From: an uncultured Actinomycetota bacterium
Lineage (GTDB): Bacteria; Actinomycetota; Actinomycetes; Propionibacteriales; Nocardioidaceae
Length of the DNA: 64,000 nucleotides
Reading direction: 5' to 3'
NCBI GenBank assembly: GCA_963746185.1
Contig: CAVVAE010000003.1
Coordinates: forward strand, 11,387 to 75,386
Below are positions 44,035 through 61,659 of this stretch, one piece after another; positions within the stretch are counted from its first letter, which is position 1; each line of letters starts with the position of its first letter. The notes beneath the pieces are model-generated. The model worked only from the letters and a program-made list of their open reading frames with translations, was not told the origin of the DNA and did no database searches. The position numbers and the translations under genes are program-made.

Positions 44035-44271
44035 TGCGAACGAGCGGAGCTGATTTCCATGACGAGGTAGGTCATCGGACCGGATCGGGTGGTCTGACAC
44101 GTTCGATGCCGAGTACGTCGCTCTGACCCATCTTCAGCCGACGCCTTCATCACACTCGACGAACAACTCGCCCACGCAGTAAAGGATCTGGTGAGTGTCG
44201 CGCCCATGGATACGCTGTACTAGCGGCTGTCCACGAGTCGGACACAGTGGTTGAAGGCTATCTTCGATGGC

Positions 44272-45201
44272 ATGACGGATGCTGCCGCGAGCCGCGTGGT
44301 TGCCCTCCCGGGCAATCGGATGCTCCACGCATGGGAGGGCGGAGATGCGGATGGGGTCCCCGTCGTGTTTCAACACGGAACACCCTCGGGGCGGTTGCAG
44401 GCGGTGCTCGGTGCAGACAGCGCTCGCCGGCTGGGTATCCGCCTCATCTCGTTCAACCGGCCTGGATACGGACGTTCGACCGACACCCCACCCAGCCTCG
44501 CCTCCGTCGGTCTCGACACACTTCGGGTCGCCGACGAGCTGGGCGTCGACCGATTCGCTGTACTTGGTGCATCTGGGGGCGGTCCGTACGCCATCGCTAC
44601 GGGCATTGCTGACCCGGGAAGGGTGCTGGCTGTCGGCCTCGCCGCCGGCATCGGCCCGTGGCGGCTGATCGAGCCGCCAGACTTCGGGGATCCCGACCGC
44701 CCACTCCTTGCGCTCGCGGATGCCGGAGACGTGACTGGAGCGTTGAAAGGCTTCCGCGCGCAAGGCGCCGTCGCCTACAGCCGGATGCTCCAGCTCGCTG
44801 ACAAGGCCGCGGTCGAGGAGTTCTTCAGCGACGCACCTGAGGACCTCGGCTGGCTCGACGCGCAGGCCAAGAAGCTCTGGGCGGCGGACCTTCGTGATGC
44901 ACTGCAGACGTACGACGGCTATGCCCGCGACAACGTCGCCTGGGGCGGCGATTGGGATGTCGACCCATCTCGCCTCGGTGTTCCAAGCTGGCTCTGGTAC
45001 GGAGAATTGGACCGCGTGGTGGCGCCATCGCACGGGCATTGGCTGGCAGAGCGGATCCCTCACGCAACGCTCGTCATCCGGCCCGGCAAGGGCCATGGCG
45101 GCACCATCTTCGAGTTCTGGGACGACATGCTTTCCACTCTGCGAGACCAGGTTCTCCGTCGCGCTGCACGCGGTTCTACCCCGCCAGATCAGGACGCCTA
45201 G
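44272..45201 (+). CDS. Alpha/beta hydrolase
   Basis: HGTPSGRL (oxyanion region) and nucleophile elbow VLGASGGGPYA. The ORF opens with TTG at 44251; the ATG at 44272 is preferred. Confidence 0.85.
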   Translation: MTDAAASRVVALPGNRMLHAWEGGDADGVPVVFQHGTPSGRLQAVLGADSARRLGIRLISFNRPGYGRSTDTPPSLASVGLDTLRVADELGVDRFAVLGASGGGPYAIATGIADPGRVLAVGLAAGIGPWRLIEPPDFGDPDRPLLALADAGDVTGALKGFRAQGAVAYSRMLQLADKAAVEEFFSDAPEDLGWLDAQAKKLWAADLRDALQTYDGYARDNVAWGGDWDVDPSRLGVPSWLWYGELDRVVAPSHGHWLAERIPHATLVIRPGKGHGGTIFEFWDDMLSTLRDQVLRRAARGSTPPDQDA

Positions 45202-45675: not shown

Positions 45676-46773
45676 CTAGGGCTTCCTCGATGTAGATGTT
45701 GATCCAAAGCGGAACTCGACCACGTCGCCGTCGGCCATCACGTAGTCCTTGCCCTCGATGCGCACCTTGCCGGCGGCCTTCGCGGCATTCATCGAACCGG
45801 CCGCCACCAAGTCGTCGTACGACACGATCTCCGCCTTGATGAAGCCACGTTGGAAGTCGGTGTGGATGACACCGGCGGCTTCGGGAGCGGTCGCACCCTG
45901 CTTGATGGTCCATGCCCGAGACTCCTTCGGACCAGCCGTGAGGTAAGTCTGCAAGCCAAGGGTGTCGAAACCGACACGGGCGAGTACGTCGAGCCCCGGC
46001 TCGTCGACGCCCATCTCCTCGAGCATCGCGCGAGCCTCGTCGTCATCGCCGAGCTCAACCAACTCAGCCTCGAACTTCGCGTCGAGGAAGATCGCCTCCG
46101 ACGGCGCGACGATCTCCCGCATGCGGGCCTTGAGCTCCTCGTCGCCCAGCTCGTCGGCGTCACAGTTGAACACGTAGATGAACGGCTTGGCCGTCATCAA
46201 CATCAGCTCGCGGACCAGTGTCTTGTCGATCGAGGTGGCGAGGATCGGCGTACCCGCTTCCAACGCGGACTTCACCTCGCGGACCGCCTCCAGCAGAACC
46301 GCGTTCTCTTTCTTGAGTCGCGCCTCTTTCTCCAACCGCGGCAACGCCTTCTCGACGGTCTGCAGGTCAGCGAGAATCAGCTCGGTCTGGATCGTGGAGA
46401 TGTCGTCGGCCGGATTGACCTTGCCCTCGACGTGCGTGACGTCGTCGTCCTCGAAGACCCGCGTCACCTGGCAGATCGCGTCGGACTCGCGGATGTGCGA
46501 CAGGAACTTGTTGCCCAGCCCCTCCCCCTCGGAAGCACCCCGAACGATGCCAGCGATGTCGACGAACTGGACCGTCGCGGGCAGCGTCTTGGCCGACTCG
46601 AAGAGCTTGGCGAGTACGCCGAGTCGCGCGTCTGGGACGCCGACCACGCCGATGTTGGGCTCGATCGTCGCGAACGGGTAGTTCGCCGCGAGCACATTGT
46701 TCTTGGTGAGCGCGTTGAAGAGGGTCGATTTGCCGGCGTTGGGGAGTCCGACGATTCCGATGGTGAGTGCCAC
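45676..46773 (-). CDS. ychF: Redox-regulated ribosome-binding ATPase YchF
   Basis: IGIVGLPNAGKSTLFNALT, NYPFATIEPN, DIAGIV.GAS.GEGLGNKFL and the C-terminal TGS block GVIHTDFQRGFIKAE. The GTG start at 46771-46773 gives 365 aa. The 655-aa ORF upstream extension is spurious. Confidence 0.95.
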   Translation of the reverse strand: MALTIGIVGLPNAGKSTLFNALTKNNVLAANYPFATIEPNIGVVGVPDARLGVLAKLFESAKTLPATVQFVDIAGIVRGASEGEGLGNKFLSHIRESDAICQVTRVFEDDDVTHVEGKVNPADDISTIQTELILADLQTVEKALPRLEKEARLKKENAVLLEAVREVKSALEAGTPILATSIDKTLVRELMLMTAKPFIYVFNCDADELGDEELKARMREIVAPSEAIFLDAKFEAELVELGDDDEARAMLEEMGVDEPGLDVLARVGFDTLGLQTYLTAGPKESRAWTIKQGATAPEAAGVIHTDFQRGFIKAEIVSYDDLVAAGSMNAAKAAGKVRIEGKDYVMADGDVVEFRFGSTSTSRKP

Positions 46774-46926
46774 GGGCGACAACAGTACGGCGAACGGGCC
46801 GCCACCCGGAAATCCAGCACCGAGCCGTCGACAGATGGCCGTACCTGCGCCCGGAGGGTTACACCCTGAGCTGGCAGGGTTCCGCAGTGTCTTGTGCGCT
46901 GCCCACCCCGCGTCTACCGTCGGAAC

Positions 46927-47331
46927 ATGGGGAACGGCCTCCTCGGTGCGTTCATCGCCATCGCCTTCGTCACGCTGATGCTCGGCGTGACAGTCGGTGG
47001 CGTGCTCTACCAGCACGAGATCGCGGCGTTCTTCCGGCGGTTCGCCGGCCGATTCTCGACGCCGCCTGAACCTCCAGCGGGTCTGCCCATTGAACGTATC
47101 GCCCGGGACGCCCGCCGCCTCAGGACCGAGCTGCTCGTCCCCGCTCCCGGAACCCCGATGGCCCGCCGGATAGCCGTGCAGCGGGCGTACGACGACCTGC
47201 TGGCTGACGCGTGCGAAGCGCTTGATGTCCCCGACACCCTGAGTGATCTTCCCCCGGGCACGGAGCGGGATGCCGAGCGGCTGCACGTGGAGCATGAGCT
47301 TGATGAGGCCGGCCTGCGCCTCACCGCGTGA
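46927..47331 (+). CDS. Hypothetical membrane-anchored protein
   Basis: N-terminal TM (LLGAFIAIAFVTLMLGVTVGGVL) followed by a charged helical region. Confidence 0.5.
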   Translation: MGNGLLGAFIAIAFVTLMLGVTVGGVLYQHEIAAFFRRFAGRFSTPPEPPAGLPIERIARDARRLRTELLVPAPGTPMARRIAVQRAYDDLLADACEALDVPDTLSDLPPGTERDAERLHVEHELDEAGLRLTA

Positions 47332-47362
47332 CCCGCGAAGAACGCAGGTCCTGAAGCTCCGG

Positions 47363-48256
47363 TCAGTTACGGGACTCGCATTGGAAGTCTCTGTCGCCCT
47401 CGCCCGAGTTGGCTGACACCTTGTCGCGGCCACTGCCGCACAGGAGGAAGTCCGCACCCGCATCGCCCCAGAGCTGGTCATCACCGTCGCCGGCCCAGAT
47501 CCGGTCTTCACCGCTTCCACCGTGCAGAGTGTCACGACCATCGACGGCGACGATGTCGTCGTTGCCCGCACCGCTGTGCACGAGGTCGTTGCCAATCCCG
47601 GACCTGATCCAGTCGTTGCCGCCGCCGCCCCAGACAACGTCACGACTGGAGAAGCCGTTGAAGAAGTCGGGACCCGCCCCGAAGCGGGCGACGTCGTGGC
47701 CCTTGTCGCCCAACACGGTCACGGCGAATGTGGCGGGCAGGGAAGAGGCGTCGGTGTAGTCGTTGCCGAGCCTCGGCCAGATCTCGACCAGCATCGGCCG
47801 GTTAACGGTTCTGCCTTCGCGTAGCCGACAGATAGCAGCGACGCCCACCCGCACCTTCTGCCGGTGGCAGGCGCGCGTCAGCTTCCTGAACGATTCTGTG
47901 CCGGTGTCGGCGAAGCGGAGCCGGCCGTCCACGAGAGTGACCACGAGGTGGCTGTTCTGCTGGCCGCTTTGGTAGCGATATCCGTGCTCGGTCTTGATGA
48001 GCCAGCCCTTGTCCTTCAGGCCGACGCCGACGCTGCCGGCACCCTTCAGCTCCGTCTCGAACTTGTACGGAGGCCCGGCATTGGTACCGGGGGGCGGGTT
48101 GTTCGTGCCATCAGCAGTTCCGACGCTCACGGCAGACATCACCGCTGCAACGAAAAATACAAGGGCCGAGACTACGGTGCGACGAAGCAAAACATCCTCC
48201 TGGAGTCGGCCCCTCGACTGCCGGGCGGCAAGGGTGGCCAGCAACGGTCTCGACAC
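47363..48256 (-). CDS. Secreted calcium-binding protein with hemolysin-type (RTX) nonapeptide repeats
   Basis: Signal-like VVSALVFFVAAVMSAVSVGTA. The C-terminus has seven GGxGxDxUx-like repeats (GGGGNDWIR, SGIGNDLVH, SGAGNDDIV, GGSGEDRIW, AGDGDDQLW, GDAGADFLL, CGSGRDKVS). Confidence 0.8.
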   Translation of the reverse strand: MSRPLLATLAARQSRGRLQEDVLLRRTVVSALVFFVAAVMSAVSVGTADGTNNPPPGTNAGPPYKFETELKGAGSVGVGLKDKGWLIKTEHGYRYQSGQQNSHLVVTLVDGRLRFADTGTESFRKLTRACHRQKVRVGVAAICRLREGRTVNRPMLVEIWPRLGNDYTDASSLPATFAVTVLGDKGHDVARFGAGPDFFNGFSSRDVVWGGGGNDWIRSGIGNDLVHSGAGNDDIVAVDGRDTLHGGSGEDRIWAGDGDDQLWGDAGADFLLCGSGRDKVSANSGEGDRDFQCESRN

Positions 48257-48377: not shown

Positions 48378-49316
48378 TCAGGGCGCAGGTTCGAGCTCCG
48401 GGAAGGTCCAGGTGCCGTCGAGGATCTCGGGGCGTGGCCGGTACATGCGGATGGCGTAGTTCCATCCCTCTTGCAGTGGTAGCGGGTTCGGGTCGCTGTC
48501 GCCGCCGCCGAGGGTGACAGTGATGGAGCCGTCGGGATTCCTGGTTCCGGAGACGCTGTTGACGCTGTAGGCATCCAGGTCGTTCTTGTGGAGGAAGCCA
48601 TCCGCGCCGTAGACGGTGATGGACCAGAACGCGTCGACGGGGACGTCCTTGACCGTGATGGTGTACCGGCCGATCGGGAGGTGCGGCTCGACGCTGGCGT
48701 AGAACGCCTCACGCTCGGGCAGGCCGCCCCATCCGCTAGCGGTGCCGACCTGGTGCCGGTGCGGGTCAACCTCCTCCTTGGTCCCGAACATGCCGTGGGT
48801 ATCCAAGCCCTGTGCCGATTCAGCCAGCAGACCCTGGCGGATCGCGGTGAAGGACTCCTCGTCGTAGTCCGGCAGATCCAGCGGCTCGCTGGACACGGCG
48901 GTCAGTGAGAAGCCGTCTTGAATGACATGCACTAGCGCGACGTCATCGGGGTCGGTCGCGTCGACCAGGATCCGGGCGGCCAAGAGAACGTAGGGGGTGT
49001 CGAACTCCTCCATGGTCAGCGTGTAGTCACCTGGCTCGGTGAAGATTCGGTTGATGTAGTGGTCCTGGTTGACCACCATCACCGTCAGATACCGGCCTCC
49101 AGCGTCCGGGACCGTCACCGTCGCGGGCATGGAGATGTTGACCACGGCGACGCTGTACAGAGTGTCTCTGTTCGACCGGATCACGGTCTGGTTGTCGATC
49201 GACACAGGTTCCCGGTTGTGCTGCCACCGGTTCACCCCGCCCGCCTGCGCCTGGATCCCCACCAGCATCCGGTTCGTCTCGGCCCGCACGAAGTTGTCGC
49301 TCGTAACAGTGATCAT
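48378..49316 (-). CDS. DUF1254/DUF1214 two-domain protein
   Basis: DNFVRAETNRM..., VIRSNRDTLYSVAVVNI, PDAGGRYLTVMVVNQDHY, then the FWSITVY block typical of DUF1214 (from memory). Confidence 0.72.
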   Translation of the reverse strand: MITVTSDNFVRAETNRMLVGIQAQAGGVNRWQHNREPVSIDNQTVIRSNRDTLYSVAVVNISMPATVTVPDAGGRYLTVMVVNQDHYINRIFTEPGDYTLTMEEFDTPYVLLAARILVDATDPDDVALVHVIQDGFSLTAVSSEPLDLPDYDEESFTAIRQGLLAESAQGLDTHGMFGTKEEVDPHRHQVGTASGWGGLPEREAFYASVEPHLPIGRYTITVKDVPVDAFWSITVYGADGFLHKNDLDAYSVNSVSGTRNPDGSITVTLGGGDSDPNPLPLQEGWNYAIRMYRPRPEILDGTWTFPELEPAP

Positions 49317-49400
49317 GAGTGGCTGCCTCCCGGCGTTCGCAGAAACGTACTCGGCTCGCATCGTATCCAGGCTCGAAGCGCAGCCTCGGCCAAGGAGCCC

Positions 49401-49961
49401 TCAAGCCAGGGGCGGGTCGATGACTTTCGTGACAAACGTCAGTGAAGAGCTGCCCACGCGACCCGTCACCTCCCAGCAGCCTGAAGTCGGAAACATGACT
49501 GCCGTGGATTGAAAGCCGGCGCGGCCGTAGCCGCCGGGGACCCATGACCGGAGAGCCGCCGCGTCCGCGTCCAGTCGTCGACCGGTAACTCTGAGGTCGC
49601 CATTGACGCCTCGTGTCCACGGGAACTTGACCGCGATAGTGCCGTTCGGCCGGGCTCGCCCGTAGTAGGCCGGGCGGACGATGCCCCGTGGGTACAACTC
49701 GACCCAGAGCCGCCCGTTGCCATGGCTCAACGGACTCGTCTGGCCAGGCGGGTTGTTGCCATTCGACAGGGTGACGGGACAGTCGGTTGACGGTGTAGAC
49801 GGTGATGGCGCACGCGGACTCGGTGACCCATCCACACCGGTCGGACGCAGCGACGATCAGCTCGTGGCAGGGTCGGGCGTCGTCTCTCGGACCGGTTCAG
49901 CCGTGCATGAGGCGAGAAGCAAGGCGACGAACACACGACTCCGCGCATGCTTCCAGTACAG
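49401..49961 (-). pseudogene. Lipoprotein gene interrupted by an in-frame TGA
   Basis: In a single frame: ...HARSRVFVALLLASCTAEPVRETTPDPATS-TGA(49857-49859)-SSLRPTGVDGSPSPRAPSPS...GCWEVTG.... The lipobox is LLAS-C (Cys codon 49905-49907). No ATG is in frame upstream (CTG at 49959-61 or GTG at 49932-34 only); the nearest ATG (49946-49948) is in a different frame. Confidence 0.5.
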
Positions 49962-50137
49962 CGCGCCAGGGGTCGTGAATCCAGACCCACACCGGTACGT
50001 ACATCAGCAATCCAGCTCTCGGGCTCAGAATCCCTTACCCACAAGGGAAAACAGAGAAAACTGACGGCCCGACGGGAGAATGGAATCCCGCCGAGCCGCC
50101 AGCCCCACCACTTAGGCGGGCCTCACGGAGAGCGCAC

Positions 50138-53100
50138 TCATCTCGGCGACTGGGCGAACCCGACCGCGTTGAGGAAGAGCCGCTCGCCCGACGTCGTCCA
50201 GCCCATGTCGGGGCCGACAGCGCCAGTGACCGCCATCGATGCGAGCAGCACCTCGACATCGTTGTGGGTGACCCATCTGAACGTGGCGCCGTTGCCGACG
50301 CTCGATCCTCCGTTGTTCAAGGTCACGCGCTGAGTCGCAAGCCGCGGACCCTTGTAGGACTCGATCGTGGAGTAGTAGCTGCCCTCAGTCAGGATCGTCG
50401 CCGGGTTGGAGATGCCCGCGAACAGCGCGTGCCGCCGGTCCTGCTCGGTCAGCCGCACCGAGCCATCGCCGTACCCGTCGCTCCCGACCTTGACTCGATC
50501 GGTGAACTTCTCCAGCAGCCGGATGCCACCTTCGCTGCCCCACGTGCCGGTCCAGACCACGCCGGTATGGCTGGCGCGGGTGGCTGCTTCGAGAGAGTTG
50601 AACTCCGCCTGAGACACGGTGCCGCCGCCGCTCCCGTTGACCACCACGGCGTCGTACGCCGACAGGTCCATCTTGGTCGACCATGGCACCTTGCCGGCAG
50701 CGACGTCGTGCTCCCGAAGGAAGTCGACGACCTGTCCGTCGACGTCACCCACAACACCGACGTCGATCGACGTCAGTTCGACGTTGTGTGTCGTCTCCGG
50801 GCCGACGTAGTCGATCGTCGACTCGTCGGTCAGGTAGCCCTCAGCTGCCACCGCGATGGTGTACTCGCCGTCGAGCAGACCAGACTGCGAGTAGTGACCA
50901 CCCGCGTCAGTCATGGTGCGGAAGCCCTCGACACCTGAGCCGATCACCGTCGCCCCTTCGACTGGCTGCCCCCCGTCATCGACAACCGTGCCGCTCAGCA
51001 CGCCGCGCGCCAGTGGCTCGAGCGCGATGTCGGCCGTCACCTGTTCGGAGTCGGTCACGGTGACCTGCTGACTCGAGGGTTGGTAGCCCGTCGCTTCCAC
51101 CGTGACCGTGTAGGTGCCGTCGGGTACGCCGATGGCGTAGCCGCCTGCTTCATCCGTGACGTCAGACGCACCCAGCTCGGTGATTCTCACGTCAGCGCCG
51201 ACCACGGGATCGCCGCCCGACGTCACAGTGCCGTTGATCTCACCCCGGGTTGCAGTCGCGGCAAACGACACCGCATTGAGGTAGATCCTTTCGGCTGCGG
51301 CAGTCCACTCATCGCCGGGACGACCGTAGGTGCCGGCCGTGAGGCTTCCGAGCAGCACCTCGACGCTGTCGGTGGAGGTGTAGGCAACGCCCACCCCGCC
51401 TCCGAGCTTGCTGCCATCAGCGTCGTTGTGCAGGTCGGCAATCGTGGTACCGCTGTAACCACCGAAGGTGAGGTATTGCTGGTTGCCACCCTCTGGATCG
51501 TTGATGATCGTCACCGGCTCGCCCGCGTCGAAGCCGGCGAAGATCGGGTGTCCACTGACGGGGACATAAGAAACCGGACTCGGTACGAAGTCATAGTCGA
51601 CCGATGCCGGGTCGCCTCTGAGGTCATGGAGACTTCCGATTGCGTCGCCGCCCCACTGGCCGCCGAACAGCACGGATACGCCGTTGTCGGCCGCCGCGTT
51701 GAGCGTCGCGTTGAACTCGCCAAGGAAGGCGGAGCTGACCCCACGGTTGAAGACCACCACGTCGTACTCGTCGATCTGCTCCCGCAGCGTTGACAGCTCG
51801 GTGGGGGTGTAGTCGGTCACGGTGTAGCCGTCAGTCGCGAGCAGGCCTCGAACGCTGCCGAGGTAGTCACCGACGAGTGCCACCGGCACCGAGGGATCGA
51901 GCTCGAGATCAGCCGTCGCGGCTTCTCCCGCCACGATCGTGACCGGCACGCGGCCTGTCTGTAGCCCAGTCGCCGATGCGGAAACCCGGTAGTCCCCGGC
52001 AGGCACACCCTCGATCAGGAACGAGCCGTCGGCGGACGTGGTCGCCGCGAAGGCAGTTCCGTCGACCCGTACCGTCGCGCCCGAGACCGGAGCCGCGGAC
52101 TCGTCGGTCACGGTGCCCGAGACGTCGCCCGCAGGCAGTAGCGCAAGCGCGATGTCGCGACTCACCGACTCGCCGACTCCGACGGTCACTGAGACCTCGG
52201 ACGACGCATGGTTGGTCGCCTCCCCACGCAAGGTCCAGGTCCCGGCCGGAAGTCCGACGACATAGTCGCCATCTGCCGCGACGTCGTAGCGGCGGCCGGT
52301 CTCGACCACCGTCACGGTGCCGGCGACTGGCCCGGCCGCGCTGGTCAGCGCACCCTCGACCTGTCCACCTGCGGGCGGCGCATCGAGTGCGTAGCGGACG
52401 GCGTTGCGCAACAGCAGTTCAGCCTGCGGACTCCAGGCGTCGCCGACAACGTCGTCGTAGCCAGCGAAGCCGTACGTCGACATCGACAGCGTGCCGAGGA
52501 GCACGTCGACGCCTGCAGCGCCACGCGGCCGCTCACCGACGAGCCCGCCTCCGTCGAGCACGTCCGACGACACGGTCGCGAGAGTGTCGCCACTGAAGCC
52601 GTCGAACCATGAGTACTCCGAGCCGTCGTCGATCAGCTTGAACGTCGACGGAAGCCCAGCCATGATCGGGTGATCTGAGTCCTCGACCTGGACCGTGACG
52701 GCTCCGTCGGAGCGGTCCTCGTTGTTGCCAGTTGGGTCGCCGGTGTAGTCGGTCAGGTAGCGGAACGAGCCGCGCCCGAACTGGTCGAGCCACACCACCG
52801 AGATGCCGGCACGAAGCGCCGCCGAGTCAAAGGCCTGCAACCCTGCCCTGCCGGGGTCGAAGCCCGCGTTGTTCGCGTTGTTCGCAATGACGAGGTCCAG
52901 GTCAGCGATCGCTGCTGTGTCGGACCAGCTCAACGCCTGCGGCGTGTAGCCCCAGTGCGTCAGCCAGGCGGCGACCTTGCCCTGGTAGTCGTCAATCACG
53001 CCGACGCGTGCGGTGACTCGAAGGTTGACGTCGTACGACGTGGGAGCCCCAGCCGTCACGTTGACCGCGTCACGATCGCGTAGATAACCATCGTGGGTGA

Positions 53101-56100
53101 CATCGACCTGGTAGTTACTCGGCTCGACCCGAGGCAGCACGTAGGAGCCGTCGGACGCCGTCGTAGCCAGCCTCGGTGCACCAAGCAGGCGCACGGTGAC
53201 ACCGGCGACCGGCTGACCGTCAGACGTCACGACTCCGCTGAGGCTTCCATCGTCGGCCTTCGGGGTCAGTGCGACATCGGACGTGACTGCACCACCGTCG
53301 TCGATCGACACCTCGCGGGTCGTCTCGTCATAGCCGAAGCCTGCGTAACGAATGGTGTAGTCGCCTGGGGGCAGGCTGAGCGTGTAACTGCCGTCTGCCG
53401 CCGTAGGTGTGCGCTGCTCCGTGCCGTCGACCGACACAGTGCCACTGACTGGGGCACCCGCCTCGTCTGACACCGTGCCGGAGACCGAGCCCAGTGCTGG
53501 ATCGGCTGCGAAGAGCACCGAGTTGGCGTAGAGCCTGCGACCCTGCGCCGTCCAGTCCTCTGACGCTTTCAGCAAGATGTCCGATGTCATGCCGCCGAGG
53601 AGCAGATGGATGCTCGACGGCGTACGTGGTTGATACGTGATGCCGACACCATGGGAGCCGCCGAGCTCGGAGACCACATCGGCGACCGGGAAGCCGGTGT
53701 AGCCAGGGATGGCCGTCGAGTAGTTGTTGGCGGTGAGCACTGGCGGGTTGGCGGGGAGACCGTCGAAGATGGGATGGGACGCATCAGCTGCAGAGAAGCT
53801 GACCTCGCCCTCGTCGTCGAACTGCGCCCGTGGCTGGGACGGGTTGCCGTTGAACTGCCGGAGCAACCGCACTCCCCCGTCACTGGAGAAGTAGCCGTCA
53901 CCGAAAACGCCGCTGACGCCGTTGGCGTCCATCGCCGACTGCCAGCTGGCGAACTGCGCCACTGTCGGCGTAGTCGGGTCGTTGAACACCACCACGTCGA
54001 GGTCGGGGATGCGCGCCGTGGATGTCCACGTCAACTGTTCAGTCGTGAGGCCCCTGACCTGGAGCACGGTCGCGATCGTGTTCTGGTAGTCGCCCATGAT
54101 GCCGACGTGCGGCGCTGTATCAAGGGTGACATCGGCCGTAATTGTCTGGCCTCCGACGATGGTGACGTCCTGGCTGTAGGGCAGGAAGCCGGTGGCCGCG
54201 ACACTCAACGTGTAGTCCTCGGCAGGTAGGCCGCTGACTGTGTAGGTGCCGTCGGACGCCGTGGTGGCGTTGAACGTCGTCCCGTCGATCGTGACGGTTG
54301 CACCCGCCACCGGTTCGCCGTCCCCATCGCTCACTGTGCCGGTCACCGAGCCGAGCTCAGCCGGCGTCATCGTGACGTCGACGGTTTGCGTCTCGCCTCC
54401 CGTCACGGTGACGTCGCGCTCAACAGCGGCCGCTCCGGTCGCGCGGAATCGCAACGTGTAGGTGCCGGGGTCGAGGACCAGCTTGTAGCTGCCGTCGGAC
54501 GCAGTACTGGTGTGATAGCCGGTGCCGACGGCGGTGACGGTGGCCGCCGCCGGAGCGCCACCTTCGCCAGTCACGGTGCCGTGTACGACACCGTAGTCGG
54601 CATCGATCGCGTAGTCGACCGCGTTACCGATGAGCTGTTCGGTGATGGGAAGCCACTCAACGTCCGGCCGGCCCCAAGGGGCAGCCGCGAACGATGACAA
54701 CAGCACATGCACGCTGTCGGTCGAGCGCGGTTTGTAGGCGATGCCGGACCCGACCTCGCCCTTACCGTCCGTATGCAGGCTGGCCAGATTGACTCCGGAG
54801 TAGCCGTTGAACGCTGCCCACTCATTGTTCGCCGCCAGCACCGGTACGCGGCTGCCCACGGTCAACCCTTCGGTGAGTGGGTGCTCCTGGCCGGCGATCA
54901 GGGAGACTCGGCCGCTGCCCGTGGAGTCGGTAACGACACTCGCTGGGTCACCGGTCTGGTCGGAGAGGTTGAGGATGCTGCCGTAGCCGATGCTCCACTG
55001 ATCGAGCCAGATCACGCTGGTCCCAGCCGCGTCGGTGGCGTCGATGAACGGCTGGATCACTCCGGCCGCGGGTCGGTCCTCGGCCCCATTGGCGAGCACC
55101 ACGTCGTAGTAGTCGGGGTGCGCGGTGACTTCGGCGTACGACGTCGTGTCAGCCGGGTAGCCGAGGTCTTCGAGAACTCCGACCATGCGGCCCTGGTAGT
55201 CACCCATGACTGCGACCTGATAGCGGTCGAGCGTCACGGGCTGGTCAGTGGTCTGACCCGCCGTGACCGAGACTTCGGTGGTGTAAGGAACGAAGGCGTC
55301 CTTGTCGACGCGGAGCTGGTAACTTCCGGCCGCGATGGTTGCGAACGAGAAGGTGCCGTTCGCAGCTGTGGTGGCTGGGTCGAGCGGCGTACCTTCGAGC
55401 ACTACCTCGGCACCTTCGATGGGATTGCCGTCGCCATCGAGCACGGTGCCAGTGACGGAACCGGTGCCAACGGGCGTGAGGGCGAAGTCGGCCGACGTGA
55501 TTTGCCCGGCCGCGATCGTCACCTGCTGGCTCTCGTCAGAGAACCCGTAGGCGCTGGCCTGCAGCTGGTAACTGCCCGGTCGGTGGTCGAGCTGGTAGTC
55601 CCCAGTTGCGGGGTCCGTGGTCGTCAACGCACCTGTGTCGGTGATCGTGACGGTGGCGTCGAGAGGTCCGTCCGGACCCGTGACCGTGCCGGTAACTCCG
55701 CCCGTGGTGCGGTAGGCGTAGAGCATGCCGCTGGTGTCGCCGGTGACAAACGTGCCGTCGTCGTACGCACCGCTGCTCGTGACATTGGCGTCGACGTCGT
55801 CGACCCACACGCGCTTGCCGGTCACCGCGTCGAGCGCAAAGAGCACACTGTCGATCTGTGAGCCACCGATGACGTAGCCATCTCCGGTCGTCATCAACGA
55901 GGACGAGACCGGGCCAGTGTCCTGGTGGCGCCAGGCCACCGTGCCGGTGATCCGGTCATAGGCCACGACAGCGCCGTTGGCGTGCGTGCCGCTGATGACC
56001 AAGTCGCCGTAGATGGCTGGGCTGCTGCCTTGCGCGTCGCCATGCGTGCTGTTCTGCCACGCGATGGTGCCGTCGTCGGCGTTGACTGCGAGGAACGTGC

Positions 56101-59017
56101 CGTCCCAGGCCGCATCACTGGTCGTGGTGACGTAAACGAGCCCATCGGAAACGGTCGGGGCGCTGTAGAACGTGTCGTCGTCACGTTGGAGGGTCCAGGC
56201 GACTTCGCCGGTGGAGGTGTCGAGTGCCACGAGACGGCCCTCGTCAGCGCTGGTGACGTAGAGCTGGCCGCCGTCGACGGCCGGGCCGTTGAAGATTCCG
56301 GCAGCGACTGGTGTGCTCCACAAGACCTCGCCGGTCATCAGGTCGATCGCGTAGACCGAGTCGGCGACTTCCGAGGGTCCGGTGTTGGCGTAGACGACGC
56401 CGTCCACCACAGCGGGCTGGGTGTACACGGCCAGCTGGCCCGGAGTCGCGACGTGCCACAGCACGTCGCCCGTGGCGGCGTCGAGAGCGGTGAACCCGCC
56501 GGCCAGACCACCGCCGATGACCACGACTCCGTCAGAGACTGCTGGGCTGCCTCGAAGCTGGTCACCGACGTCGTAGCGCCACATGAGTTCGCCCGTGTCG
56601 AGGTTTCGTGCCTGCAGCTCGCCCGAGATCGTGCCGACATAGACGATGCCGTCGGCGATGACTGGCGAGGCGAAGGTGATGCCGGTGCCGGTGTCGACCG
56701 ACCACTCACGCCGGAGCGTGTCGGGGGCCACGGCCTTGCTCGTGTATCCGCTGTGCGCACTGTTGTTCTGGTACTGCGTCCAGCCATTGTCGGTGGCGCT
56801 GGCGAGTGGTGCGAGGGTCGGGTTCAGCATCTTGGTCTTCGGGATCGACACCGTCGAAGACCAGGGCTTGAAGCCGGTGGCTCGTACTCGTACGACGTAC
56901 TCGCCAGCAGGGATGCTCGTCGAGAACTTGCCGTTGCTGCCGGTGAAGACGGGGTCGACACCAGAACCGTCGAAGCTCACCTCTGCACCGGCGACTTGGC
57001 CGGCGGGCCCGGGCGCCGACCTCACGGTGCCGGAAACGGCGTGGTTCTTTGCGGACTTGAGGTCGATTGTCCGCGTCAAGGCTGAACCGGGCGTGATCTT
57101 GACCGGAACGTTGGCGGTCTGAAAACCAGGTGCTGTCACGCGGATGGTCTGGTTGCCTGCGGGGACCGTGAGCTGGAACTGGCCGGCGTCGTTGCTGGTG
57201 GTGTTCCATCTGGTGCCGGAAACGACGAGCTTGGCGCCGGCAACCGGCCCGGCTTTGCTTGTCACGGTGCCGCTCACGGTGCCGGAGTTGATGGCCTTGG
57301 TAACAGCGGCGTACGCGTCGACGATGCCGTTGCCGTAGTCGTTGTCGGGCAGGCTGCTGCCCATGTGCGACTCCTGCCGGGCGGTGCTGGTCAGCATCGT
57401 CTCGACGTCGTCCACGGTGAGGTTGGGGTTGGCGGCCAGGAGCAGCGCAGCCACTCCGGACACGTGCGGCGTTGCCATCGACGTACCGCTCAGTTCGACG
57501 TACTCGCCTTCGCCGAGCGACGTCGGGAACGACGAGTAGATGTGGTGCCCGGGGGCGGCGATTTCTGGCTTGGTGTAGTCGACGCCCTCCCAGCTGACGG
57601 GTCCGCGGCTGGAGAATCCTGCGACGACATCGTTGAAGTCCGTGGCACCGACCGCAAAGGAGTTCGGGAAGCTGCCTGGCGAACCGACGGTTGTAGGACC
57701 AGGTCCGTCGTTGCCATTGGCGAAGATCGGCACGATGCCAGCCGCCCTCCACGCTTCAACGTCGCCCCAGTACTGCGTGTTGTAGGTGTCTGCTGAGCCC
57801 CAGGAGTTGCTCACGAGGTCGGGCGCCGCGGTGGGGTCGCCACCTGGCGCGAGCATCCACTCGAAACCGCGGTGGATGCCGCTGGTGCTGGCGCCGCCGC
57901 CGTCGCTGAAGATCTTGGCGGCGATCCAGGTGGCCTTCGGCGCGACGCCGACGACCTCGCCGGGGGCGCCGCCGACAATGCTGCCGGCGACGTGGGTGCC
58001 GTGCCCGAAGCCATCGCCCGGGGCCGGGTAGTCCTCTGACGTAGCGACGAACCAGCTCTTCTCGAGGTCACCGGTGTTGCCGCGCCACGAGCCGGCGAGC
58101 GCGGGGTGGCTACCGTCGACGCCGCTGTCCATGATGCCGACGACGGTGCCTTGACCACGGTCATCGAACTCGCTCCACACCTGCGGAGCATGCACGCGCT
58201 CCAGTCCCCAGGTAGGCAGCTTGGGTCCGCCCTCGAGAGGCTCGGGGGTGGGCTCCTGGATCATGCCGTCGACGGTGACACTGGCGACGTCGGGGTGACG
58301 GGTGAGCCGGTTCAGCGCTTCGCTGTCGACGGTTGCGGAGAAGCCGTTGAAGATCCAGTACGGCTGGACTTTGGTCGCATGTCCGTCTGTGCGAAGTTGC
58401 TGGAACAGCGACGCCACTGAGGATCGTTCGTCACCGGCGAAGGATCGGAGTGCGTCGACGACAAGTGTGGACTTGGCATCTTGGCCGGCATCGGCGACGC
58501 GACGGTTCTCGGTCGCCTGCGAGAGGTCGCGGCTGTTGAGCTGCGTACGCCGCGTCAGTGCCGCGTCGAGTGCAGCCGCATCGGCGTCAGTCGCGAGCGC
58601 AGTCATATCGACCTGCTCACGAAGCCGGACGATGACCGCCACGTCGTCGCCGTCCGCTGCCTCACGAGTGACCTTGGGGGCGACGCCGGTGTCGGGCAGC
58701 AACACCGACTCGACGGCATCGTCATCTGCGTCGGTGCGGGCGGAATCGATCGACGTGACCGGAAGTCCGTCGGTGATGTCGGTGGCGCGGCCGTAGTCGG
58801 CCTTGGTCTTCGCGGCGGGACGCGAAGGCGCTGCGGTCGCCGCAGCGGTGGTGTCCGAGGTCGAGGCAGCGGCCTCGATTGCCGCTCCGAGCGAGGATGC
58901 TGGCTGTGCCGACGACGGCTGGTTGGACGCGTGCGCCGGCGAGCCGGGCAACAGCGTGACGGTGAGAAGAGCGGACGCGAGAGCAGGCAGCAAACGGCTG
59001 CCAAGGCGTGCGGACAA
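50138..59017 (-). CDS. Giant secreted subtilisin-like serine protease (S8), 2,959 aa, multidomain
   Basis: TTG start with a G-rich SD. Sec signal MSARLGSRLLPALASALLTVTLLPGSPAHA. I9-like propeptide (aa 124-255). Catalytic triad motifs GIMDSGVD (D297), GHGTHVAG (H339) and SGTSMATPHVSG (S513). Twelve CarboxypepD_reg-like domains, a PQQ-like propeller, and five alpha/beta modules of about 205 aa. Confidence 0.95.
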   Translation of the reverse strand: MSARLGSRLLPALASALLTVTLLPGSPAHASNQPSSAQPASSLGAAIEAAASTSDTTAAATAAPSRPAAKTKADYGRATDITDGLPVTSIDSARTDADDDAVESVLLPDTGVAPKVTREAADGDDVAVIVRLREQVDMTALATDADAAALDAALTRRTQLNSRDLSQATENRRVADAGQDAKSTLVVDALRSFAGDERSSVASLFQQLRTDGHATKVQPYWIFNGFSATVDSEALNRLTRHPDVASVTVDGMIQEPTPEPLEGGPKLPTWGLERVHAPQVWSEFDDRGQGTVVGIMDSGVDGSHPALAGSWRGNTGDLEKSWFVATSEDYPAPGDGFGHGTHVAGSIVGGAPGEVVGVAPKATWIAAKIFSDGGGASTSGIHRGFEWMLAPGGDPTAAPDLVSNSWGSADTYNTQYWGDVEAWRAAGIVPIFANGNDGPGPTTVGSPGSFPNSFAVGATDFNDVVAGFSSRGPVSWEGVDYTKPEIAAPGHHIYSSFPTSLGEGEYVELSGTSMATPHVSGVAALLLAANPNLTVDDVETMLTSTARQESHMGSSLPDNDYGNGIVDAYAAVTKAINSGTVSGTVTSKAGPVAGAKLVVSGTRWNTTSNDAGQFQLTVPAGNQTIRVTAPGFQTANVPVKITPGSALTRTIDLKSAKNHAVSGTVRSAPGPAGQVAGAEVSFDGSGVDPVFTGSNGKFSTSIPAGEYVVRVRATGFKPWSSTVSIPKTKMLNPTLAPLASATDNGWTQYQNNSAHSGYTSKAVAPDTLRREWSVDTGTGITFASPVIADGIVYVGTISGELQARNLDTGELMWRYDVGDQLRGSPAVSDGVVVIGGGLAGGFTALDAATGDVLWHVATPGQLAVYTQPAVVDGVVYANTGPSEVADSVYAIDLMTGEVLWSTPVAAGIFNGPAVDGGQLYVTSADEGRLVALDTSTGEVAWTLQRDDDTFYSAPTVSDGLVYVTTTSDAAWDGTFLAVNADDGTIAWQNSTHGDAQGSSPAIYGDLVISGTHANGAVVAYDRITGTVAWRHQDTGPVSSSLMTTGDGYVIGGSQIDSVLFALDAVTGKRVWVDDVDANVTSSGAYDDGTFVTGDTSGMLYAYRTTGGVTGTVTGPDGPLDATVTITDTGALTTTDPATGDYQLDHRPGSYQLQASAYGFSDESQQVTIAAGQITSADFALTPVGTGSVTGTVLDGDGNPIEGAEVVLEGTPLDPATTAANGTFSFATIAAGSYQLRVDKDAFVPYTTEVSVTAGQTTDQPVTLDRYQVAVMGDYQGRMVGVLEDLGYPADTTSYAEVTAHPDYYDVVLANGAEDRPAAGVIQPFIDATDAAGTSVIWLDQWSIGYGSILNLSDQTGDPASVVTDSTGSGRVSLIAGQEHPLTEGLTVGSRVPVLAANNEWAAFNGYSGVNLASLHTDGKGEVGSGIAYKPRSTDSVHVLLSSFAAAPWGRPDVEWLPITEQLIGNAVDYAIDADYGVVHGTVTGEGGAPAAATVTAVGTGYHTSTASDGSYKLVLDPGTYTLRFRATGAAAVERDVTVTGGETQTVDVTMTPAELGSVTGTVSDGDGEPVAGATVTIDGTTFNATTASDGTYTVSGLPAEDYTLSVAATGFLPYSQDVTIVGGQTITADVTLDTAPHVGIMGDYQNTIATVLQVRGLTTEQLTWTSTARIPDLDVVVFNDPTTPTVAQFASWQSAMDANGVSGVFGDGYFSSDGGVRLLRQFNGNPSQPRAQFDDEGEVSFSAADASHPIFDGLPANPPVLTANNYSTAIPGYTGFPVADVVSELGGSHGVGITYQPRTPSSIHLLLGGMTSDILLKASEDWTAQGRRLYANSVLFAADPALGSVSGTVSDEAGAPVSGTVSVDGTEQRTPTAADGSYTLSLPPGDYTIRYAGFGYDETTREVSIDDGGAVTSDVALTPKADDGSLSGVVTSDGQPVAGVTVRLLGAPRLATTASDGSYVLPRVEPSNYQVDVTHDGYLRDRDAVNVTAGAPTSYDVNLRVTARVGVIDDYQGKVAAWLTHWGYTPQALSWSDTAAIADLDLVIANNANNAGFDPGRAGLQAFDSAALRAGISVVWLDQFGRGSFRYLTDYTGDPTGNNEDRSDGAVTVQVEDSDHPIMAGLPSTFKLIDDGSEYSWFDGFSGDTLATVSSDVLDGGGLVGERPRGAAGVDVLLGTLSMSTYGFAGYDDVVGDAWSPQAELLLRNAVRYALDAPPAGGQVEGALTSAAGPVAGTVTVVETGRRYDVAADGDYVVGLPAGTWTLRGEATNHASSEVSVTVGVGESVSRDIALALLPAGDVSGTVTDESAAPVSGATVRVDGTAFAATTSADGSFLIEGVPAGDYRVSASATGLQTGRVPVTIVAGEAATADLELDPSVPVALVGDYLGSVRGLLATDGYTVTDYTPTELSTLREQIDEYDVVVFNRGVSSAFLGEFNATLNAAADNGVSVLFGGQWGGDAIGSLHDLRGDPASVDYDFVPSPVSYVPVSGHPIFAGFDAGEPVTIINDPEGGNQQYLTFGGYSGTTIADLHNDADGSKLGGGVGVAYTSTDSVEVLLGSLTAGTYGRPGDEWTAAAERIYLNAVSFAATATRGEINGTVTSGGDPVVGADVRITELGASDVTDEAGGYAIGVPDGTYTVTVEATGYQPSSQQVTVTDSEQVTADIALEPLARGVLSGTVVDDGGQPVEGATVIGSGVEGFRTMTDAGGHYSQSGLLDGEYTIAVAAEGYLTDESTIDYVGPETTHNVELTSIDVGVVGDVDGQVVDFLREHDVAAGKVPWSTKMDLSAYDAVVVNGSGGGTVSQAEFNSLEAATRASHTGVVWTGTWGSEGGIRLLEKFTDRVKVGSDGYGDGSVRLTEQDRRHALFAGISNPATILTEGSYYSTIESYKGPRLATQRVTLNNGGSSVGNGATFRWVTHNDVEVLLASMAVTGAVGPDMGWTTSGERLFLNAVGFAQSPR
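50147..55699 (-). repeat. Five tandem protein-level supermodules (about 365-370 aa each) inside the giant protease gene
   Basis: Each is [CarboxypepD_reg-like x2]+[alpha/beta module of about 205 aa]. Coordinates: 54599-55699, 53504-54589, 52379-53491, 51257-52366, 50147-51244. Landmarks recurring in every copy: GSVTGTV/GVLSGTV starts, V-G/A-V-x-G/D-D-Y, YDVVV.N, HP(I/L)..G(L/F), V.(V/L)LL, NAV.(Y/F)A. Confidence 0.85.
55709..56785 (-). other. PQQ-like/BamB-like beta-propeller domain of the giant protease (aa 745-1103, approximate)
   Basis: Repeated blades of the form SPVIADGIVYVGT..GELQARNLDTGELMWRY, SPAVSDGVVVIGG...FTALDAATGDVLWH, QPAVVDGVVYAN...VYAIDLMTGEVLWS, GPAVDGGQLYVTS..GRLVALDTSTGEVAWT, and so on. 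Confidence 0.75.
57308..58165 (-). other. Peptidase S8 catalytic domain of the giant protease (aa 285-570, approximate)
   Basis: The D297 codon is 58127-58129, H339 is 58001-58003, and S513 is 57479-57481 (checked against the nucleotide sequence). Confidence 0.9.
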
Positions 59018-59203
59018 GGGATCCCCCCAGGGTGCGTGAAAGGTGTGCGTGCCTTGTGACGCGGCTCACAGTAGTGACCCTTAGTGAGTGTGGCAATACC
59101 CAGCGTCGGGCAACATCGTCCAGGACGCCCCATTTCTGGTCGTTCCCACCAGTGCCCAGCTCGTCGTGCCGTCACAGCGAGTTACAACGAGCGGTGCGTG
59201 AGC

Positions 59204-59749
59204 TCACGGCGTGATGCGGAACAGCTCGAGTTCGGTCTGGTAGTACCGCGTCGTCCGTCCGAGTTCTTCCATGCCGAGCCGGCGGCACACCGCGATCGAG
59301 GGCGCGTTGTCCGGGCGAACGACCGCGAAGATCTCGTCGAGGCCGTGCTCGAAGCCCCAACTGAGAGCGCCTTTCGCCGACTCCGACGCCAACCCTTGCC
59401 CCCAGGAGTCGGGGTGGAAGTGCCAACCGACCTCGAACTCGCCGTCTCCATCGGGCAGCGGCACCAAGATGACCGTGCCGACGAGAAGGCCGTCGCTCTT
59501 ACGCTCCACCGCCCAGCGACCAGCGACCGGCTCCTCGCGGTTGATCTCACCCCACCTGTCGACCAGGCCTTGCGCCTGCTCGAGTGTCTCCATCGCCTTG
59601 GGCTGTGCGCCGAGCCACCGCGCCACCTCCCAACGCGAGTAGAGGTCGAGCACTCGGTCGACGTCACTGTCACGCCAATTGCGCAACCGACAACGGTCGG
59701 TCTCGAAGGCCACATCGCTGGGACCAGTCGCCTCGGCGTTCTCACTCAC
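59204..59749 (-). CDS. GNAT family N-acetyltransferase (RimJ/RimL-like)
   Basis: TDRCRLRNW...D...L..LY, the WAVERKSDGLLVGTVIL block, and QGLASESAKGALSWGFE (acetyl-CoA pocket). Confidence 0.85.
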   Translation of the reverse strand: MSENAEATGPSDVAFETDRCRLRNWRDSDVDRVLDLYSRWEVARWLGAQPKAMETLEQAQGLVDRWGEINREEPVAGRWAVERKSDGLLVGTVILVPLPDGDGEFEVGWHFHPDSWGQGLASESAKGALSWGFEHGLDEIFAVVRPDNAPSIAVCRRLGMEELGRTTRYYQTELELFRITP

Positions 59750-59769
59750 GCCGCGACCCTACCCACTCC

Positions 59770-60690
59770 TCAGCCACTGGGTATGGCGGCGAAGGCGCGG
59801 ACCGGAAACGTCCCGAAGTTTGCGACCTTCGGCGGTACGGCGAAGAAGCGGGCACCGCGCGGCGGCACCGCCTCGAGGCCCGTGAGGTGTTCCGCGATCG
59901 GGATGCCGGCGTCGAGCAGAATCGTGTGCGCTGGCCGGGTCTGGTCGGTCATGTCGTCGATGTTGGCGGCGTCGATTCCCACCAGTGCTGCACCTTGCTC
60001 GACCAGCCAACCGGCCCCGTCCCGCGTCAGGAAGGAGGCGTCTTCGACGTACGCCGGCGTCCCGAATCGCTCGCAGTCACCCGTCTCGAGCAGCACGGCC
60101 ATGCCACGTACGTCGTACGCCGCCAGGGCTTCGACTCCGATGCCTCCCGCAGGGGCGTCGCGCAGCTTCACGACGACTGCTGGTACGTCGGCGAGACTGT
60201 CGAGACTGAGTCCGGACAGGTCGACACCGCCCGCGAATCGATGATGCGGCGAATCGACGTACGTCCCCGTGTTGGCCACCATCGAGATCCGCCCGATCTC
60301 GAACGTCGTCCCCGGCGCGTAGACCTTCACTGCGGCTTCGCGCGAGAGGTGTGGGGTGATCTCCGGACCAGGCAGACCAGGCAGTGTCACCATGCCAGCG
60401 GTGATCACGTGGCTCAAGTCGACGAGTTGGGTCGCCGAATCGCCGGCGGCCATCGCCTGCGGCTGCCTCGGGCCGCCGCGGGTTCCCTTGTGAGCCTCTT
60501 CGACCATGACGACAGAGTCGAGACGTACGTCGGTGGCAGCGATCAGTCCGAGCGCGGCGACCAAGAGCGACTCGATCTCCTGATGCGCGACGTCAGTACC
60601 AGGGACGTCAAGGCGGAACCCCTGCACCTGGATCCCGCCACCGTTGGAGAAGGAGATGGCTGCATCCACAATCGCTCGGTGATCGGTCAT
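59770..60690 (-). CDS. Cyclase family protein (kynurenine formamidase-like) with an N-terminal extension of about 85 aa
   Basis: Cyclase motif NTGTYVDSPHHRF (HxGTHxDxPxH-like), LVDLSHVI and GIDAANID. The first 85 aa match nothing I recognise. Confidence 0.78.
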   Translation of the reverse strand: MTDHRAIVDAAISFSNGGGIQVQGFRLDVPGTDVAHQEIESLLVAALGLIAATDVRLDSVVMVEEAHKGTRGGPRQPQAMAAGDSATQLVDLSHVITAGMVTLPGLPGPEITPHLSREAAVKVYAPGTTFEIGRISMVANTGTYVDSPHHRFAGGVDLSGLSLDSLADVPAVVVKLRDAPAGGIGVEALAAYDVRGMAVLLETGDCERFGTPAYVEDASFLTRDGAGWLVEQGAALVGIDAANIDDMTDQTRPAHTILLDAGIPIAEHLTGLEAVPPRGARFFAVPPKVANFGTFPVRAFAAIPSG

Positions 60691-60925
60691 GGCGCCATGA
60701 TGGCGGCTGCGCCATGCACACCGTGAGAGGGAAGCCTGCCGTCAACCCGCGAATTCCCGCCCCACTTCTTCAGCCGACTGCCTCAGTGGGCTGCCTCAGA
60801 GGGTTTCGGCGGAGATGCCGTACCGAAGGGCGTCCTCGTAGCACTGGCTGCCCAATGAGCTACCAGCACACGACAGCACGCTTACCTACCGTGTTTTGTC
60901 GGCACTGCCTGTCATCGTCGTTCCT

Positions 60926-61659
60926 ATGAGCGCAACAACTTTCGTCATCGCCCTCCTGACCCTGGTAGCCGGTCTCGCCATCGGCGTGGTCATCGGTCAG
61001 CGATCAGCCACTCGCTCGCGCGATGACCTGCGCGCCGAACTTCGGATGCTCTCGGCTCAGGCCGTGACGGAGTCGAGCGACCGGGTATACGCCATGGCCG
61101 GTTCGGGTCTACGAGCGACCGAGCAGGTCGTCAAGCCGGTGCGTGAAAGCCTTGACCGGCTCAACGACCGGATCAACACGTTGCAGAGTGAGGGTGCGTC
61201 GTGGCAGTCGCAGCTCAAGCAGCAGGTCGATTCCGTGCACCTCAGTGGCGTTGAACTGCGCCAGCAGACCCAAGCCCTGGCTGAGGCGCTGCGCCGACCG
61301 CAAGTCCGCGGCATGTGGGGCGAGATGCAGCTCCGTCGTAGCCTCGAGCTGTCCGGGTTGACGGGACGCTGCACCTTCGACGAGCAGGTCACCCGCCAGA
61401 CCGACGACGGATTGCTCCGTCCTGATGTGGTCGTCAACCTGACGGGCGGCAAGCATGTCGTCATCGACTCGAAGGTGCCGCTCGATGCCTTCCTGTCAGC
61501 CACCCACGCGACCGGTGATCAACGCGATGCCGCTCTGGTGCGGCATGCGAAACAGGTTCGCGGCCACGTCGATGCGCTGTCGTCCAAGTCGTACTGGGCG
61601 CAGTTCTCGCCAGCTCCGGAGTTCGTGGTGATGTTCATGCCCGGAGAGGCGATCTTTGC

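Follow-up and report, generated by a model that had tools for sequence, protein, structure and literature searches.

Large subtilases that work outside the cell have a central place in nutrient acquisition, virulence and industrial enzymology, and two described groups invite comparison with the protein reported here. Tk-SP (3afg) and the classical subtilisins share with it an N-terminal propeptide and the D-H-N-S motifs, and in Tk-SP a C-terminal β-sandwich follows the catalytic domain. The cell-envelope proteinases (lactocepin PrtP, C5a peptidase ScpA and SpyCEP) are, like it, large exported S8 proteases with C-terminal β-sandwich arrays, which hold their catalytic head off the wall; they have a PA domain inserted into the catalytic domain, A domains of the Fn3 type and anchoring through LPXTG and, to our knowledge, possess neither a propeller nor domains resembling class-I glutamine amidotransferases (GATase1). 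Here we report a gene for a 2,959-amino-acid (aa) subtilase on a stretch of 64,000 nucleotides (nt), hereafter the window, from an uncultured Actinomycetota bacterium of the Nocardioidaceae (assembly GCA_963746185.1, contig CAVVAE010000003.1, positions 11,387 to 75,386). The protein joins an S8 head to two CarboxypepD_reg β-sandwiches (CPD), a β-propeller of the PQQ/BamB type and a tail in which two CPD and an α/β domain, named domain X here, recur five times. It belongs to a family that is widespread in public databases yet uncharacterised, with a conserved five-position tail that has not been described before. In contrast, Tk-SP and the classical subtilisins are ten times smaller and possess no propeller, domain X or repeated tail, and the cell-envelope proteinases differ in that the catalytic domain of the window protein is nearer to the subtilisin/Tk-SP type than to theirs.

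Architecture and distribution of the giant subtilase

The original prediction, made from the sequence alone, had assigned about 14% of the window to a single 8.9-kb gene, which proved exact: the open reading frame (ORF) at 50138-59017 on the minus strand takes up 13.9% of it, beginning at a TTG start codon (59017-59015) and running as one uninterrupted frame of 2,959 codons. Homologues were taken as the best 120 of 292 relatives from a search of 5.8 billion protein clusters, and almost all of them are full-length matches (94–100% coverage, 2,900–3,500 aa). The window protein shares with this family the order S8, two CPD, propeller and five repeats of two CPD plus X, an order found in more than 110 protein clusters, every one of which bears a generic, automatically assigned name. 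Carriers include Jiangella, Hamadaea, Micromonospora, Natronosporangium, Ornithinimicrobium, Nocardioides, Gaiellaceae, a metagenome-assembled genome (MAG) of the Limnocylindrales (Chloroflexota) and many Bacillaceae, among them Mesobacillus, Cytobacillus, Virgibacillus and Sutcliffiella. The original prediction knew of no characterised protease with this arrangement, and the searchable literature yielded no paper on this architecture, no characterised protease that has it and no characterised member of the family; it is not, however, peculiar to one genome, and what is widespread at 94–100% coverage is the complete architecture and not only the protease head. A scan of genome contigs with the full protein gave no match, and a narrower alignment against species-representative genomes found 17 actinobacterial loci, adding Phytoactinopolyspora and Micromonosporaceae MAGs to the carriers.

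Kribbella is missing from the listed homologues, and carriers thus seem patchily distributed. The proteins of Hamadaea flava (P0017) and of the Candidatus Limnocylindrales MAG (P0018, locus L009) are 80% identical over 3,115 aa, which may reflect either a recent horizontal transfer or a mis-binned contig. Surveys usually strip or exclude long subtilases, and a family of ~3,000-aa proteins has consequently gone unnoticed; a 2022 survey of Bacillaceae subtilases, for example, kept only proteins of 350–410 aa (PMC9549277). Strains of Jiangella, Micromonospora, Ornithinimicrobium, Mesobacillus, Cytobacillus and Virgibacillus are cultivable carriers in which the family can be studied.

To place the supermodule borders, chunks of the sequence were run with BLAST against the complete protein and then aligned with MAFFT, and the five copies of a ~370-aa unit that had been predicted were recovered. 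Each begins with a pair of sandwiches; the third part, which had been left without a name, is a distinct α/β domain of ~207 aa and not another β-sandwich.

50138..59017, minus strand: whole gene; 2,959 aa, 304 kDa, isoelectric point (pI) 4.2, zero cysteine (ORF call and composition)
54602..55708, minus strand: supermodule 1, aa 1104-1472; two CPD and X1 (aa 1266-1472, 54602-55222)
53498..54601, minus strand: supermodule 2, aa 1473-1840; two CPD and X2 (aa 1636-1840, 53498-54112)
52376..53497, minus strand: supermodule 3, aa 1841-2214; two CPD and X3 (aa 2004-2214, 52376-53008), with a weak ThuA match
51254..52375, minus strand: supermodule 4, aa 2215-2588; two CPD and X4 (aa 2378-2588, 51254-51886), the copy modelled with AlphaFold2
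50141..51253, minus strand: supermodule 5, aa 2589-2959; two CPD and X5 (aa 2750-2959, 50141-50770), the end of the protein

Pairwise protein identity among the five supermodules is 28–37%, and DNA repeats between them are at most 68 nt long and at most 78% identical. This divergence and the lack of long DNA repeats exclude the assembly expansion that had been named as a threat to the repeat count; the same five modules also occur in finished chromosomes such as that of Ornithinimicrobium ciconiae (CP041616.1). Exactly five supermodules are present in 116 of the 120 homologues, the four exceptions being much shorter proteins. When modules were compared between proteins, module i found its best match in module i in 102–115 of 115 other proteins, including those of Bacillaceae at ~30% identity, giving a best-match matrix that is almost purely diagonal. 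The five supermodules are thus positional orthologues across phyla, not interchangeable beads, and the five-fold tail is ancient, with a fixed number of modules that each keep to their own position. Judged from these comparisons, the module duplications predate the spread of the family, and number and order have been held since, which raises the testable question of why there should be exactly five different modules. The tail domains are all about equally conserved across homologues.

The head is that of a conventional exported subtilase, and by every feature testable here from sequence the giant protein is a bona fide member of family S8. Searches with hidden Markov models (HMMs), proposed as a check on the domain assignments, placed Peptidase_S8, Inhibitor_I9, CarboxypepD_reg and PQQ_2 all above their Pfam cut-offs. 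The predicted Sec signal and I9-like propeptide were found, the I9 match being a marginal one, and the intact catalytic triad of D297, H339 and S513 lies exactly where it had been predicted. The features of the head are as follows.

58928..59017, minus strand: Sec-type signal peptide, aa 1-30 (MSARLGSRLLPALASALLTVTLLPGSPAHA, with putative cleavage before the following S); sole hydrophobic stretch of the protein
58658..58927, minus strand: low-complexity linker of Ala, Ser, Thr and Asp, aa 31-120; not conserved among homologues
58223..58657, minus strand: I9-like propeptide region, aa 121-265; Pfam match at aa 200-251
57293..58222, minus strand: peptidase S8 catalytic domain, aa 266-575 (Pfam, structure-sequence alignment and homologue conservation)
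58127-58129, minus strand: catalytic residue D297 of the S8 domain
58001-58003, minus strand: catalytic residue H339 of the S8 domain
57710-57712, minus strand: oxyanion-hole residue N436 of the S8 domain
57479-57481, minus strand: catalytic residue S513 of the S8 domain

The N-terminal hydrophobic segment terminates in AHA, and no twin-arginine motif is present in the signal peptide (aa 1-30). Peptidase_S8 (PF00082) matches aa 288-564 over the full model (positions 1-288) with 185.9 bits against a cut-off of 21.8 (E 1.4e-54). The closest solved structures are Tk-SP (3afg; E 9e-37) and subtilisin Carlsberg (E 3e-31), and D297, H339, N436 and S513 align with the catalytic residues of Tk-SP. An alignment-based check found the D/H/N/S tetrad unchanged in all 120 homologues. 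Conservation peaks in the S8 head, which is under strong selection: 35% of its positions are at least 95% conserved across homologues, which points to proteolysis as the core function. Identity as a mycosin (TIGR03921) was rejected on score (101.8 bits against a cut-off of 278.75), and no ESX genes lie nearby. Thr, Ser, Gly, Ala and Val abound in the protein as a whole, which is acidic and free of cysteine, and the median cysteine count of its homologues is likewise zero. To judge by its composition (zero cysteine, pI 4.2 and a sole hydrophobic segment at the N-terminus), it would be a typical exported protein of a Gram-positive bacterium.

Between head and tail, Pfam bore out the two predicted CPD and the predicted propeller of about 360 aa with blades of the BamB/PQQ type.

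56798..57289, minus strand: first CPD β-sandwich pair, aa 577-740 (Pfam and chunk BLAST)
55709..56797, minus strand: eight-bladed PQQ/BamB-type β-propeller, aa 741-1103 (Pfam, NCBIfam and blade motifs)

CarboxypepD_reg matches twelve stretches across the whole protein (E 2.7e-158). In the propeller region (~aa 760-1100), PQQ_2 matches at E 8.7e-46 and Beta-prop_ACSF4 at 137.5 bits (cut-off 133); seven blade motifs were located by regular expression and the eighth (GDLVISG) was read from the translation. The propeller resembles the eight-bladed BamB/PQQ propellers in its blade motifs and passes the generic PQQ_2 and Beta-prop_ACSF4 models only, scoring well below the cut-offs for BamB itself (TIGR03300; 121.4 against 285.2 bits) and for a PQQ-dependent dehydrogenase (TIGR03075; 79.8 against 480.05 bits). 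Unlike those proteins, it is an internal domain of an exported Gram-positive protein and not a lipoprotein or a dehydrogenase.

Domain X and its smaller relatives

Domain X closes each supermodule, and none of its five copies exceeds a cut-off in Pfam or NCBIfam. Against ThuA (PF06283) the whole protein reaches 28.0 bits, below the gathering threshold of 33.4, through a match in X3, and ThuA-family membership at the curated threshold was rejected. Pfam searches of 35 isolated X domains gave one match to ThuA (E 3.7e-4), one to DUF4350 and no consistent family, and the X profile found chance-level matches only among PDB sequences, with no sequence relative. Structure prediction was more telling. 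The AlphaFold2 model of X4, built from a 35-sequence alignment, is an α/β domain with a predicted local distance difference test score (pLDDT) of 97.3 and a predicted template modelling score (pTM) of 0.93. Its best Foldseek match is the uncharacterised STM3548 (2gk3; E 5e-7, template modelling score 0.62); lower-ranking matches are PuuD and the GATase domains of aminodeoxychorismate synthase, GMP synthase and CTP synthase, the last two at E 2e-4 to 1e-3. We confidently predict from this model that domain X has a class-I GATase-like fold. The combination of structure prediction and Foldseek that had been proposed for the individual domains was informative for X; applied to a pair of supermodules, it gave generic stalks only.

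A fold is not an activity, and domain X was rejected as a class-I GATase: the fold is there in the model, but the Cys nucleophile of the Cys-His-Glu triad is missing, and with no cysteine in 2,959 aa all five X domains are excluded as enzymes of this kind. In all five, strand 1 is followed by an Asp and strand 3 by an Asn, and all share the motifs HP..G and Y.G and a Trp before the last helix, with the qualification that X5 of the window protein has HA where the other copies show HP. Further residues are conserved per position in the tail, notably after strand 4, the site of the nucleophile elbow in GATases. Domain X is closest in these respects to the non-catalytic GATase1-like domains (STM3548/2gk3, ThuA PF06283 and the DUF4350/GldG type), with which it shares a flavodoxin-like α/β fold, the lack of a Cys nucleophile, weak ThuA and DUF4350 matches and the 'HP..G' motif. 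It differs from them in falling below every curated cut-off, in having no detectable sequence relative in the PDB and in forming a rare family of its own within extracellular, mostly S8-linked proteins.

A profile of domain X found 342 matches in 1.84 billion representative proteins, and domain layouts (S8, CPD, propeller and X) were mapped on the best 150 of these with HMMs built here. Among the 88 mapped proteins of at least 1,000 aa, 62 have an S8 head; these carry one X (35 proteins), two (19), three (2), four (2) or five (4), and the propeller is limited to those with five. Most often the order is S8-CPD-CPD-X with He_PIG, Big_12, CARDB or dockerin domains behind it, an example being an uncharacterised Dehalococcoidia protein of 1,423 aa (MCL0058695.1, P0185). 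Such smaller subtilases are likewise exported, multidomain proteins, and the S8 head and first CPD pair of the window protein are colinear with theirs at 31–39% identity over ~470 aa; they differ in having one or two X (rarely three or four), no propeller, and tails of He_PIG, Big_12, CARDB or dockerin type. From these layouts the giant family seems to have been built up from an S8-CPD-CPD-X unit, in that a propeller was placed after the first CPD pair and CPD-CPD-X came to be present five times.

The remaining 26 of the 88 proteins have no S8 head, and many of them begin inside a domain, as fragments would. In the X proteins P0162, P0186, P0194, P0140 and P0133, which lack any S8 head, X arrays with or without CarboxypepD_reg spacers seem to follow directly after an N-terminal signal. 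Since X arrays without an S8 head exist, X is not strictly a protease accessory. Taken together, the mapped layouts make domain X a rare, mostly subtilase-linked domain family, newly defined here by its predicted GATase1-like fold, the absence of cysteine and of any Pfam model, and its usual place behind an S8 head.

Possible roles of the head and tail

We think it somewhat probable that the window protein is an active extracellular or surface protease of the subtilisin type, exported through Sec and mounted on a binding scaffold; the family of ~3,000-aa proteins to which it belongs is conserved and uncharacterised. The signal peptide would direct the giant subtilase to the Sec pathway, and the propeptide would be removed autocatalytically after export. 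The CPD sandwiches may serve as a stalk, given that Foldseek matched a model of supermodules 4 and 5 to generic β-sandwich stalk proteins only (pilins, SdrD, SpyCEP and the SlaA S-layer protein). The propeller, like the five X domains with their differing sequences, may act as a binding module, whether for envelope polymers, for an insoluble or polymeric substrate, or for another of these domains. Binding of this kind would confine proteolysis to the cell surface or its vicinity, where it could serve nutrient scavenging or matrix remodelling. Were the modules indeed binding units, the protein would offer a natural scaffold for multivalent protease targeting. By analogy, it most resembles in function the large Gram-positive surface proteases on β-sandwich stalks, and SpyCEP is among the Foldseek matches of its tail. 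A lactocepin/ScpA-type cell-envelope proteinase was nevertheless rejected as its identity, as Pfam found no PA domain, there is no C-terminal hydrophobic segment and no LPXTG motif turned up in a scan of 116 five-module homologues beyond the fifth module.

How such a protein would be held in place differs within the family. X5 forms the C-terminus in the window protein and its nearest relatives (P0002-P0004, 60–66% identity), whereas most other homologues continue for 100–280 aa of Ig-like domains, and about eight of 116, all from Bacillaceae, have tails of ~570 aa that include three CWB2 repeats. In one of the latter (P0091) the three CWB2 (CW_binding_2) stretches match at E 3e-60, from which we infer that some Bacillaceae orthologues are fixed to the cell wall by these repeats. 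The original prediction saw neither a C-terminal transmembrane segment nor an S-layer or wall-binding motif in the window protein, and this held: it has no hydrophobic segment at its C-terminus and no SLH or CWB2 domain in Pfam. Scanning beyond the fifth module found no LPXTG in 116 five-module homologues, a region that in the window protein comprises a single residue, its last 60 residues lying outside the scan. In the anchor-less, Nocardioidaceae-like clade the protein may be released or else held non-covalently through its tail. The earlier suggestion of a surface scaffold or of multivalent binding draws indirect support, by analogy, from the CWB2 anchors of Bacillaceae and from the likeness of the sandwiches to Gram-positive stalks.

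Several observations weigh against a protease on a binding scaffold. The Inhibitor_I9 (PF05922) match at aa 200-251 is marginal, with 22.4 bits against a Pfam cut-off of 21.2. Neither an anchor nor a signature of ligand binding can be recognised in the window protein. A few X arrays seem genuine without a protease. Finally, AlphaFold2 folded all six domains of supermodules 4 and 5 with a pLDDT of 90.6 at a pTM of 0.53, which leaves a defined superstructure no more than a possibility.

A bolder form of the scaffold reading, to which we attach a low probability, is that the five X domains form a single-chain set of different receptor-like or pseudo-enzyme modules, each with its own ligand or neighbouring module, so that the tail would act as a platform for targeting or regulating the protease, a 'cellulosome for proteins'.

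We regard as unlikely a structural, S-layer-like surface coat, in which the tail would build a lattice or fibre and the S8 head would mainly process or mature the coat. A large, acidic protein without cysteine and with a bias towards Thr, Ser, Gly, Ala and Val would suit such a role, as would a fixed number and order of modules for a defined lattice unit, and the Foldseek matches to SlaA and pilins and the CWB2 anchor of some relatives point the same way. Ten local matches to the model of the Kustd1514 S-layer glycoprotein (NF052345) sum to 229 bits; the cut-off, however, is 1400 bits, the CarboxypepD_reg repeats alone explain these ten short matches, and identity with the Kustd1514 protein was rejected. 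The window clade, moreover, lacks SLH, CWB2 or any other anchor, the most strongly conserved part of the protein is the S8 head, and carriers are patchy rather than lineage-wide, an uncommon pattern for a main layer of the envelope.

That the five X domains are themselves enzymes, as GATase1, DJ-1/PfpI or ThuA-type hydrolases or amidases in a multi-enzyme degradative machine, we consider doubtful. The confidently predicted GATase1-like fold, the weak ThuA and DUF4350 matches, the conserved Asp, Asn and HP of X and the module-specific residues after strand 4, at the site of the GATase elbow, would be in keeping with enzymes. Against this, the class-I GATase nucleophile is absent from all five copies for want of any cysteine, no X reaches a Pfam or NCBIfam cut-off, profile search finds no sequence relative in the PDB, X5 has HA instead of HP, and the closest structure (2gk3) is itself uncharacterised.

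We give an equally small chance to a secreted antagonistic effector, whose tail would bind the envelope of a competitor or the matrix of a host for the protease to damage. An exported protein with several putative binding modules and no anchor of its own in the window clade, found patchily in soil and saline taxa and possibly transferred between phyla (the 80% identity between the Hamadaea protein and that of the Limnocylindrales MAG), would fit this role, but the three genomes compared show no adjacent immunity gene or conserved partner gene, the protein has no toxin-type C-terminal domain, and the wall-anchored Bacillaceae versions suggest that the protein acts on the surface of the cell that makes it. 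An artefact of assembly, by repeat expansion or by false fusion of neighbouring genes, is barely credible: the encoded protein is repetitive and the gene lies on an 88.5-kb metagenomic contig from an uncultured organism, but the modules are too divergent at both protein and DNA level, the frame of 2,959 codons is unbroken, and the very same architecture is found in cultured strains with finished or large assemblies, among them Ornithinimicrobium ciconiae (CP041616.1) and Jiangella species.

Flanking signals and neighbouring genes

Two short sequence elements border the gene, each with a putative function.

59023..59028, minus strand: Shine-Dalgarno-like G-run GGGGGG, 5 nt upstream of the TTG
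50058..50105, minus strand: terminator-like hairpin by consensus match, a 20-pair stem followed by a T-run

The hairpin starts 33 nt past the stop codon. An Rfam scan of window positions 49000-61000 returned no RNA family and no riboswitch or leader element, and no sigma-70-like promoter was detected upstream of the gene, a result that is uninformative for a high-GC actinobacterium. The neighbouring genes are unrelated across the window, Jiangella and Ornithinimicrobium, with no conserved neighbour in the three genomes. With its own terminator-like hairpin and unconserved neighbours, the giant subtilase gene stands alone.

Directly upstream, on the same strand and across a 186-nt intergenic leader, is a GNAT acetyltransferase gene (59204-59749, minus strand; Acetyltransf_3, E 1.2e-30). 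Downstream lie a DUF1254/DUF1214 gene (48378-49361, minus strand) and a 320-aa ORF without a Pfam family (44134-45096, minus strand). An RTX ORF of 297 aa (47363-48256, minus strand) has calcium-binding nonapeptide repeats (HemolysinCabind, E 1e-17) and overlaps the upstream portion of an over-long ychF ORF (45676-47643, minus strand). The latter is listed at 655 aa, and at 539 aa in the public record (P0268); its YchF domains begin at about aa 294 and its relatives are ~358 aa long, so translation probably starts further downstream than annotated. The window YchF is 95% identical to proteins of Nocardioidaceae MAGs and 86–87% identical to those of Kribbella, and on this basis the source belongs to the Nocardioidaceae/Kribbellaceae group.

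In the other two genomes, a gene of ~1,100 aa that combines RNase_H_2 with an AAA_30/AAA_12 helicase lies within 3–5 kb of the giant protease gene (Jiangella, locus L001, 3602-7021; Ornithinimicrobium, locus L002, 22153-25455) and is absent from the window; its place beside the protease in both loci is probably residual synteny.

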